A model generated the notes under the pieces. That model searched no databases. It was not told the origin of the DNA and saw only the letters and a list, made by a program, of their open reading frames with translations. Below, piece after piece: positions 1 through 1,945 of a stretch of DNA of 64,000 bases. How positions within the stretch are numbered: position 1 is the first letter of the stretch; every line of letters starts with the position of its first letter. The stretch comes from a virus (taxonomy: Duplodnaviria; Caudoviricetes). Location: the IMG/VR virus record IMGVR_UViG_3300042542_006078. The stretch is one strand, 5' to 3'. Both the position numbers and the translations under genes were made by a program.

Positions 1-69
1 CGTGTTAGATACAAGGGCCAATGGACAAAACCCATGATCTCAACCCGCACTCTGTCATCTAGCTTTTAA
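1..69 (+). CDS. 3' end of a gene entering from upstream (RVRYKGQWTKPMISTRTLSSSF*)
   Basis: Open frame from base 1 to TAA at 67-69; too short to assign. Confidence 0.3.
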   Translation, partial: RVRYKGQWTKPMISTRTLSSSF

Positions 70-100
70 GAAGCTACTATGATTTGCTATTGGAATAAAG

Positions 101-129
101 AAAAACCCCTTCATTTCTGAAGGGGTTTA
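101..129. terminator. Bidirectional intrinsic terminator
   Basis: AAACCCCTTCA-TTTC-TGAAGGGGTTT hairpin with A/T flanks, between the convergent upstream gene and the tRNA. Confidence 0.7.
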
Positions 130-430
130 TGGGATCGGTGGGGATTGCACCCACGACCTAAGCGTTATCATACCACTTCGGCTTTCGCCGCCATCTTGCG
201 ATGTTCGTGGTCTGGACTATGTCACAACCATGCCTTGCGGTTTAGGTCCACCCCCCATAGTCTCTACACACGCCAGACGATTTCTCGTCCGCTTGGCTCG
301 GCGTTGCCACGGGATTGATCCCAGAGGTTTCACCGAATTCGGGGCGATCCGATAGGCAGTTTCCCAACCTATCGCTCATAAGGTCTGAAGACCATTCAAG
401 CACTCCGCTCTCCTACTGAGCTACGATCCC
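130..430 (-). tRNA. tRNA-Ile(UAU) split by a group I intron; exons 430-398 and 168-130
   Basis: Cloverleaf: acceptor GGGATCG/CGATCCC, D stem GCTC/GAGC, anticodon stem GAGTG/CGCTT, T stem GTGGG/CCCAC, discriminator A, no encoded CCA; spliced loop CT-TAT-AA; T loop is atypical (TGCAATC). Confidence 0.88.
169..397 (-). ncRNA. Group I self-splicing intron (229 nt, IC3-like, no homing endonuclease ORF)
   Basis: 5' exon ends in U paired with G of the internal guide GAGCG (P1); guide TTAT pairs with 3' exon ATAA (P10); P7 strands GACTA/TAGTC in GAGACTA...ATAGTCC context; terminal G at 169. Confidence 0.88.
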
Positions 431-516
431 AATAGTCAATCCAGAGCAGATTGAATTGACTACAACCCTATTATTGTTAATTCAAAACAAAAGTCAAGCG
501 AGATTATATATAAATC

Positions 517-1242
517 ATGATGAATTTCAGGGCATATTTTGAAAAAGTCGAATTGACTCTCAAATACCACGATGATTTGAATCCATCTTTTTGGAAGAAT
601 GGAATTCTTGACTCAGATGTTAGGGATCATTTGCTCGACATAGCTGAATTCTTTCGTGATTATGCTAATATTCCCAAAGATGCGGTCAAGGACATAATCT
701 TCACTGGAGGCAACGCAAACTACAATTACACCGAGTTTTCCGATGTTGATGTTCATCTGATAATTGACAAGAAAAAGCTCAAGGTTTGCGATCCTGAAAT
801 CATGGATGATTATCTTAGTGATAAAAAAGCCTTAATAGCTCTTACTCACAATATCAAGATAAAAGGATTTCCTGTTGAGTTGTATGCACAAGATGAGAAA
901 CAAGCCACATCATCTGACCAAGGAGTATTCAGTTTGAAAGACAATAAATGGATTAAAAAACCAGCCAAGAAACAAATTAATCTAAGAGATCCCTATCTTG
1001 TTAAAAAGATAAAAGATATTGAAAATCAAATTAAAAGATTCATTGACGGTAAATCAAAAGATGTTAAAGAGATGGATGACTATAAAGAAAAATTGAGAAA
1101 AATGCGAGGATCAGCAGTTCAGCATGGAGGAGAATTCAGTTTGGAAAATTTGGCATTCAAAGAATTGAGAAATAGAGGACTTCTTGAGAAGTTTTCTGAC
1201 TATATTAAGGATGTCGAAGACAACAGGCTCACTCTTAAATAA
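517..1242 (+). CDS. Pol-beta-superfamily nucleotidyltransferase
   Basis: hG[GS]-x(9-10)-DhD motif (FTGGNANYNYTEFSDVDVHL) and downstream acidic strand (PVELYAQD). Confidence 0.7.
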   Translation: MMNFRAYFEKVELTLKYHDDLNPSFWKNGILDSDVRDHLLDIAEFFRDYANIPKDAVKDIIFTGGNANYNYTEFSDVDVHLIIDKKKLKVCDPEIMDDYLSDKKALIALTHNIKIKGFPVELYAQDEKQATSSDQGVFSLKDNKWIKKPAKKQINLRDPYLVKKIKDIENQIKRFIDGKSKDVKEMDDYKEKLRKMRGSAVQHGGEFSLENLAFKELRNRGLLEKFSDYIKDVEDNRLTLK

Positions 1243-1267
1243 TTTATTTTAATCACATAGAGGTAAA

Positions 1268-1945
1268 ATGTTAACTAATTATCGAGATTGGAGAAGAAAA
1301 TTTAGGGAAGATTTTGCATCTTCTTTCCCCAATTCAAAAAGAAAATGGGTTTCCATAGAAAAGTCCCATATAATCGAAGATCCTGATTTGGCTCAACAAA
1401 TTTTTGATCTTATTGATGATGCCTACAAAGGAATAGGCGGAAATGCCAATATTAGGTCGAAACATGATTTAACTAGCGAGTTTTTGAAGGGCGATCTTTC
1501 AGTAGTGAAGGCTATTGATTTGGATGACGATTCTGATCCAGATGCTGTGATTGGCTATAAGCGCACAGACAAAGGCAATAAGGCTGTTCTTTCGGCAGCT
1601 AAAGGATCGAGCGAAGAAGCTAAAAAATTATTGATTGACAAAAAGAAAGAGGAATTCAATAAAGGTGACGCTTATGGCGAAGTGTCTGGACCTCTTGCTA
1701 AGAAATTAATTGATGCTACAGTTCCTGTGATAGAGGACGAGGAAACTGTTAGGAGCATGTTGCCCGGCAAAAATATCATATGGCACGGTGAACATCCAGA
1801 GCTTGCAACTTTGCCACCTAAAATAGCAGCAACATTTGGCAAGCATAAAGGTTGGTACACTAGGTTGATTGGTGGACACCCTCATACAAAATTGATGATA
1901 GGCTTGAGAAATAAGCCCGGCCAAGTAACTGAAATTGGCGACTGA
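1268..1945 (+). CDS. Hypothetical phage protein
   Basis: 225 aa ORF with SD-like GAGG; leader NYRDWRRKFRE. Confidence 0.7.
   Translation: MLTNYRDWRRKFREDFASSFPNSKRKWVSIEKSHIIEDPDLAQQIFDLIDDAYKGIGGNANIRSKHDLTSEFLKGDLSVVKAIDLDDDSDPDAVIGYKRTDKGNKAVLSAAKGSSEEAKKLLIDKKKEEFNKGDAYGEVSGPLAKKLIDATVPVIEDEETVRSMLPGKNIIWHGEHPELATLPPKIAATFGKHKGWYTRLIGGHPHTKLMIGLRNKPGQVTEIGD

Follow-up and report, generated by a model that had tools for sequence, protein, structure and literature searches.

We confirmed that a gene for tRNA-Ile(UAU) is interrupted by a group I intron in a 64,000-nt stretch of phage DNA (the whole of it hereafter called the window). The explanation that we favor, with a probability of about 0.85 for the whole of it, is that the locus is a one-gene transcription unit of a freshwater phage with a genome of roughly 440 kb, encoding a tRNA-Ile(UAU) precursor with an ORF-less, 229-nt group I ribozyme inserted after U34. 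The mature tRNA would most likely add AUA-decoding capacity for an AT-rich, ATA-heavy genome without lysidine formation by TilS. Rather than an adaptation, the intron is most likely a mobile element that came from another U34 tRNA gene and is tolerated here.

An initial annotation had proposed the coordinates, the intron length, and both junctions. All of these were correct when we reread the minus strand and ran ARAGORN on the in silico spliced product. The gene is laid out as follows.

497..470, minus strand: sigma-70-like promoter candidate from a consensus scan only, TTGACT-16-AATAAT, with about 40 nt between it and the tRNA 5' end downstream

430..398, minus strand: tRNA exon 1, 33 nt, with the acceptor 5' strand, the D arm, the anticodon stem 5' strand, and loop nt 32-34 (CUU)

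397..169, minus strand: group I intron of the bacterial tRNA type (classed IC3), 229 nt, GAAUGG...GGUAUG

168..130, minus strand: tRNA exon 2, 39 nt, with AUAA-CGCUU at its 5' end

128..103, minus strand: intrinsic terminator, an 11-bp hairpin plus U tract, 2 nt past the discriminator base

The 3' end of exon 1 is GAGUGCUU (GAGUG-CUU). Exon 2 runs AUAACGCUU...CGAUCCCA and supplies loop nt 35-38 (AUAA), the anticodon stem 3' strand, the variable loop, the T arm, and the acceptor 3' strand; the discriminator is A, and CCA is not encoded. ARAGORN, the tRNA finder that we used for the check suggested in the initial annotation, called the spliced product tRNA-Ile(tat), with a length of 72-74 nt and the loop CUUAUAA. 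The spliced tRNA folds into a cloverleaf with a 7-nt anticodon loop, U33, the anticodon UAU, and a purine at position 37. From the unspliced DNA, ARAGORN reported no tRNA at the locus, intron mode included, and the sole match of Rfam at gathering thresholds and ARAGORN on the window was a tRNA-Lys(UUU) at 61816-61889.

A 241-amino-acid ORF at window positions 517-1242 (plus strand) is divergent from the tRNA gene. It matched phrog_36119 (function unknown; E=1.4e-75) and had no Pfam match. By eye only, its N-terminal part (..FTGGNANYNYTEFSDVDVHLI..) looks like a nucleotidyltransferase motif, and the ORF adjoins a tRNA gene without an encoded CCA.

The splice sites are defined by three elements.

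373..377, minus strand: internal guide sequence GAGCG, intron nt 21-25, from the minimum free energy (MFE) fold of 403..372

378..381, minus strand: UUAU, intron nt 17-20, the P10 strand, complementary to the AUAA with which exon 2 begins, as read from the sequence

169, minus strand: omega-G, the last intron nucleotide (the intron ends GGUAUG) and the junction nucleotide in an RNA circle contig

In the MFE fold, exon nt 30-34 (UGCUU) pair with GAGCG to form a 5-bp P1 with a G21.U34 wobble at the 5' splice site, and the hairpin GGUC-UUCA-GACC lies inside the P1 loop. Together, P1, P10, and omega-G fix the junction at CUU^AUAA. The fold and the sequence therefore uphold the earlier reading, in which P1 with its U-G pair, P10, and the terminal G set the junctions and yield UAU. 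Only the cut CUU^...G^AUAA combines a U at -1, a terminal G, and a 7-nt loop.

The initial annotation had also raised a different junction, in which splicing joins CU to GAUAA and yields an ordinary tRNA-Ile(GAU). The letters CU...GAUAA exist, and a 7-nt loop CUGAUAA can be written from them. However, the intron would then have to end in U instead of G, the P1 wobble pair involves U34, and an intronless homologue carries UAU. We rejected the GAU junction because an RNA contig marks G169 as the reactive 3' terminal nucleotide of the intron, and we give this reading almost no chance of being right.

We then asked how well the intron conforms to the group I family. The Rfam model Intron_gpI (RF00028) aligned end to end to 398..189 with 22.7 bits (E=0.0017; 700 nt searched at relaxed thresholds). 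The group I model scan suggested in the initial annotation was therefore positive for a full-length alignment that includes all core blocks (AAUUCGGUGAAAC, CGCCGAGCCAAG, GUAGAGACUA, and CAUAGUCC), while its score of 22.7 bits is below the Rfam gathering score of 50. The conserved catalytic core P3-P8 is present, with its J3/4-P4, P6, J6/7-P7, and J8/7-P7' elements. According to Williams 2020 (bioRxiv 10.1101/2020.01.27.920355), the Rfam seed is without bacterial introns, and a cutoff of 18-20 bits was used there. Relatives of our intron in viral contigs scored 36-61 bits against the same model. The intron carries no ORF, its longest open stretch being at most 61 codons.

Relatives were fetched by two 18-nt blocks common to the intron and LR756511, a 595-kb uncultured phage. 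This pattern was found in 7 IMG/VR contigs, at least 120 metagenome contigs, and at least 120 GTDB genome contigs, the last of which were, among the matches listed, mostly from Alphaproteobacteria and Acidobacteriota. To guard against circularity, the family profile HMM was built from the P1-P8 part only of 178 unique relatives, with the window and the 3' fetch motif left out. It gave a single match in the 64-kb window, at 392..231 on the minus strand (48.2 bits; E=2.8e-14).

RNAalifold on 179 unique sequences, projected onto the window intron, recovered P2, P3, P4, P5, P6/P6a, P8, P9, P9a, and P9b. P3, P4, P5, P8, and P9a were paired in 155-179 of the 179 unique relatives with several pair types; for P3, the count was 178-179 of 179, and some of its pairs came in as many as 5 types. 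P3, P4, P8, and P9a covary across the 179 relatives. Some compensatory pairs are private to the window intron, e.g., C54-G147 versus G-C in most relatives. P7 is the helix that holds the guanosine-binding site, and its 5' strand was located as follows.

258..262, minus strand: P7 5' strand GACUA, intron nt 136-140, pairing with UAGUC at 219..215

All five P7 pairs are standard in 179/179 sequences; four are invariant, and the other is G-U in one sequence. P9 is paired in all relatives without variation. Being practically invariant, P7 and P9 neither support nor contradict the structure. Over the core, the window intron shares only about 75% identity with its nearest relatives. The claim that a 229-nt group I intron splits tRNA-Ile(UAU) between nt 34 and 35 is thus backed by the Rfam core alignment, the family HMM, and covariation. 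We consider the intron real, well formed, and active looking; it is probably active, and splicing would end in exon ligation.

The stretch is present in lake and other freshwater DNA runs of many studies dated 2017-2024 and in two metatranscriptomes. We compared contigs of two RNA runs and two DNA runs with window positions 1-1300. The gene was unchanged in the two lake DNA runs compared. In RNA run X19, the sole contig (287 nt) corresponded to 150-436, i.e., to the precursor with both junctions unspliced and without coverage of the neighboring genes; it extended no further upstream than 436, with the promoter candidate at 497..470. In RNA run X20, a 190-nt contig followed 343..169 and then continued with 15 letters that are discontinuous in the DNA. 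Fourteen of these 15 letters equal window positions 387..374 (intron nt 11-24), and the last one mismatches. Read in the RNA sense, the contig runs ...GGUAUG(229)-C11 AGACCUUAUGAGC, so that omega-G (169) is joined to nt 11 (387). This places one further feature on the intron.

387..388, minus strand: circularization site, the phosphodiester after U10 (..GGUCUU^C..), joined to omega-G in the RNA contig

The cut lies after ..UCUU. Like the CUU of the 5' exon, this second CUU is able to pair with the guide GAG. The junction is as expected for a 5'-truncated circular intron formed via omega-G attack. It is suggestive and not conclusive, as it comes from one contig with a depth of 3 and 15 nt past the junction, and RNA libraries may hold DNA. 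A junction created by template switching would still mark G169 as a free 3' end and so fix the 3' splice site. The terminal G of group I introns is known to make 5'-truncated circles; the Azoarcus tRNA-Ile intron self-splices and circularizes by omega-G attack after a U, at U2 and U4 (PMC13168695), compared with U10 here. Ligated exons were absent from the RNA contigs of X19 and X20, which is uninformative since a modified tRNA of 72 nt would not be expected to yield contigs anyway.

In DNA run X9, two more contigs matched within window positions 122-190. Both share the tRNA 3' exon, and one also has the last 22 intron nucleotides. Both diverge downstream, where they have other terminator-like hairpins, and one carries a U43-to-A change (window position 160). 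These contigs imply that related strains or phages carry the same gene in another context.

A natural, uninterrupted counterpart of the spliced tRNA exists. The 21-nt spliced junction GGAGTGCTTATAACGCTTAGG is found without interruption in a tRNA-Ile(UAU) of the viral IMG/VR contig L009, which ARAGORN called Ile(tat), which scored 70.3 bits against the Rfam tRNA model, and which has the T loop UUCGAUU. Compared with the spliced window tRNA, nt 8-48 are identical save for one D-loop indel, and the anticodon arm is identical. The differences in the acceptor and T stems are compensatory pairs. From this combination of identity and compensatory change, the two tRNAs are homologous and selected to keep the cloverleaf, and only one of them has the intron. 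A scan of IMG/VR for more copies of the tRNA 5' half returned only L009 and L005, the latter being the 80-kb contig of the window's phage.

To place the intron within its family, 226 relatives were spliced in silico and filtered on U33, R37, a U at -1, and exon position. Some calls were mixed, and the counts are approximate. Among the matches listed, the interrupted tRNAs and the insertion sites were as follows.

Leu(UAA), 34/35: about 190 of 226

Arg(CCU), 36/37: about 21 of 226

Thr(UGU), 34/35: about 9 of 226

Met(CAU), Leu 33/34, Thr(GGU), and Asn(GUU): a few each

Ile(UAU), 34/35: two rows, L005 and L089, both from the same 80-kb contig

Several relatives in viral contigs deserve separate mention. 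A 211-nt relative lies in a tRNA-Asn(GUU), between nt 35 and 36 (CUGU^UAA), at L003:3901-4111 on the minus strand of a 297,749-bp IMG/VR contig; it scored 36.4 bits against Rfam Intron_gpI and sits in a 25-tRNA array on this jumbo-phage-sized contig. At L007:2401-2595 (plus strand; 233,959-bp IMG/VR contig), a 195-nt relative splits tRNA-Leu(UAA) between nt 33 and 34 (CU^UAAAA), a site type that Williams 2020 names “Leu.2Ug” and that occurs here on viral DNA. Introns of 189 nt, among the shortest in the set, occupy the 34/35 site of tRNA-Leu(UAA) in two more viral contigs (L002:717-905 and L006:3215-3403). The relative in the 595-kb uncultured phage (L011; LR756511.1, 409150-411400, minus strand) is about 700 nt long, also in tRNA-Leu(UAA) at 34/35, and its ORF ends in an HNH-type motif (..HHIDGD..N..LLCPNCH..) and presumably encodes a homing endonuclease. 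In a 30,044-bp IMG/VR contig (L004:3648-3835, minus strand), the intron lineage splits a major capsid gene. There, the Rfam score is 61 bits, above the gathering threshold, and the Pfam domain Phage_capsid_2 is covered from positions 1-204 upstream of the intron and from 204-293 downstream. The host of the L008 intron is probably a tRNA-Arg; in L008 and L010, the contig end removes the 5' half, so the “Arg(UCU)” call comes from the 3' exon CUAA only.

The closest known system is the tRNA-Leu(UAA) intron of bacteria and plastids, of the Anabaena/Nostoc type (“Leu.3Ug” in Williams 2020), which has the same insertion point, after U34 (CUU^). Both introns are small and ORF-less and share a P2 with a GAAA loop, P3-P9, and a three-way P9 with a GAAA hairpin. 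From P7' to P9, the two are near identical, with two exact 18-nt blocks. They differ in that here the host is a class I tRNA-Ile in a phage genome, P10 forms with AUAA and not with the AAAA of tRNA-Leu, there is an extra P1 hairpin, and no Leu intron exceeds about 75% identity over the core. The Azoarcus tRNA-Ile intron resembles ours in its small size (205 versus 229 nt), in its family, and in its host, a minor AUA-reading tRNA-Ile. However, its insertion point follows nt 36 of a lysidine-requiring CAU anticodon, whereas ours follows nt 34 of UAU.

The initial annotation had limited the known intron-bearing bacterial tRNAs to Leu(UAA), fMet(CAU), Ile(CAU), and Arg(CCU) and had placed our insertion site outside that list. 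Neither point holds. Williams 2020 (bioRxiv 10.1101/2020.01.27.920355) gives 21 tRNA/site types of bacterial group I introns, so the list of four is outdated. The 34/35 site, after U34, is classical for tRNA-Leu(UAA), and the types Arg.3Ug, Lys.3Ug, Thr.3Ug, and Ser.3Ug of the same preprint also have introns after U34, in loops starting with CUU and with the same P1 register. Ile(UAU) is absent from the 22 types of its seed alignment. As for phages, a review from 2014 placed every phage intron known at that time in a protein-coding gene, even though phages have many tRNA genes (PMC3984707). Our search of the literature found no report of group I introns in phage, jumbo-phage, or huge-phage tRNA genes, and this absence is not proof. 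As far as could be found, what is new is the tRNA species for this intron family and the phage setting, while the intron family and the position were already known.

The phage is very large and uncultured. The first 4993 nt of the window are 100% identical to the end of the 80-kb IMG/VR contig, which is rated 18% complete; 80 kb at this completeness corresponds to a genome of roughly 440 kb. The G+C content is 32-41%. Most ORFs of the window are orphans; an SNF2-type helicase and a clamp-loader-like ATPase are among those with PHROG and Pfam matches. The first 20 kb had no megablast match among sequenced phages, and blastn of the locus against a phage database gave one partial match, between the 3' part of the intron and LR756511. 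Across 68 simple ORF calls in the window, ATA accounts for 27% of Ile codons (19.8 per 1000 codons). The demand for an AUA reader is therefore real.

A TilS-independent AUA decoder, as the initial annotation inferred, is plausible and is predicted from the sequence. Its statement that UAU anticodons are rare is borne out for bacteria and phages (PMC3575796, PMC8007984). The annotated tRNA-Ile gene of phage T4 (NC_000866, 71960-72033) has the anticodon CAT and is called Met by ARAGORN; T4 thus relies on lysidine formation, in contrast to the phage of the window. The nearest parallel in decoding is tRNA-Ile2(UAU) of Mycoplasma mobile, which has the same anticodon and decodes AUA without TilS, although its gene is uninterrupted (PMC3575796). 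The M. mobile system needs an adapted IleRS (Arg865) and an adapted ribosome. A UAU tRNA-Ile is a poor substrate for E. coli IleRS, and on E. coli ribosomes such a tRNA misreads AUG (PMC3575796).

By homology to the tRNA-Leu(UAA) and Azoarcus introns, we infer the following course of splicing. The guide GAGCG would pair with UGCUU (nt 30-34) to form P1 with its U34.G wobble, and free guanosine would attack after U34. P10, between UUAU and AUAA, would position exon 2. Omega-G229 would then dock in P7, and ligation of the exons would create the anticodon loop CUUAUAA. The freed intron would attack itself after U10, beside the second CUU, to give a 219-nt circle. The steps up to intron release and circularization have their basis in homology and in the RNA junction; the ligated tRNA would then be charged with isoleucine and would read AUA.

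Two other readings of the locus concern the worth of the intron and of the tRNA. An intron that serves the tRNA could keep the anticodon loop split until late, so that the precursor escapes host anticodon nucleases, or it could guide a modification of U34 that prevents misreading of AUG. The precursor was indeed detected as RNA, and in eukaryotes tRNA-Ile(UAU) is known to be encoded by genes with introns (PMC11912914, PMC6582322). However, nothing in the sequence points to such a role. The suggestion in the initial annotation that the intron shields the precursor from anticodon nucleases is accordingly unsupported, and we regard it as pure speculation. The close tRNA homologue in another phage (L009) is intronless, the lineage is found in many unrelated tRNAs and in a capsid gene as would be the case for a mobile element, and self-splicing is usually quick and cotranscriptional. 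We therefore think an adaptive intron unlikely. Slightly less likely again is that the intron matters to the tRNA in that the split loop, perhaps along with the G55 T loop, evades host tRNA-targeting defenses, or in that the precursor directs U34 modification against AUG misreading. If the modification idea were true, it would parallel, in a bacterial virus, the modification of eukaryotic tRNA-Ile(UAU) that depends on an intron.

The tRNA could instead be decaying or nonfunctional, with the locus persisting only as the home of a selfish ribozyme. The T loop, UGCAAUC, is noncanonical, as the initial annotation had noticed; we confirmed a G at position 55 and a departure from the usual U54 U55 C56 R57 A58. 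U at position 55 is nearly universal in tRNAs, and G55 might impair this one. The anticodon stem is weak, with two G.U pairs. The E. coli tRNA-Ile identity set comprises A73, U12-A23, A37, A38, C4-G69, and C29-G41. As read from the sequence, the spliced tRNA carries A73, U12-A23, A37, and A38, and it differs at pairs 4-69 (A-U) and 29-41 (G-C). Against decay, all four stems are intact, and the compensatory acceptor and T stem pairs relative to L009 point to selection on the cloverleaf. A promoter-like site and a strong terminator belong to the gene itself, its sequence does not vary in the lake DNA runs compared, the region appears as RNA, and the demand from ATA codons is high. We consider decay as improbable as an adaptive intron and favor a working tRNA-Ile(UAU) with a tolerated mobile intron.

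With this gene, tRNA-Ile(UAU) joins the list of tRNAs invaded by group I introns. Together with the relatives in viral contigs (in Leu, Asn, and probably Arg tRNA genes and in a capsid gene), it shows that phage tRNA genes do carry group I introns. Because standard tRNA finders missed the gene, phage tRNA repertoires, and the codon usage arguments drawn from them, are incomplete. The intron is a compact, natural, 229-nt ribozyme that looks active, with environmental RNA evidence suggestive of circularization. The tRNA would be a natural example of an AUA decoder supplied by a phage and bypassing the lysidine pathway of the host.
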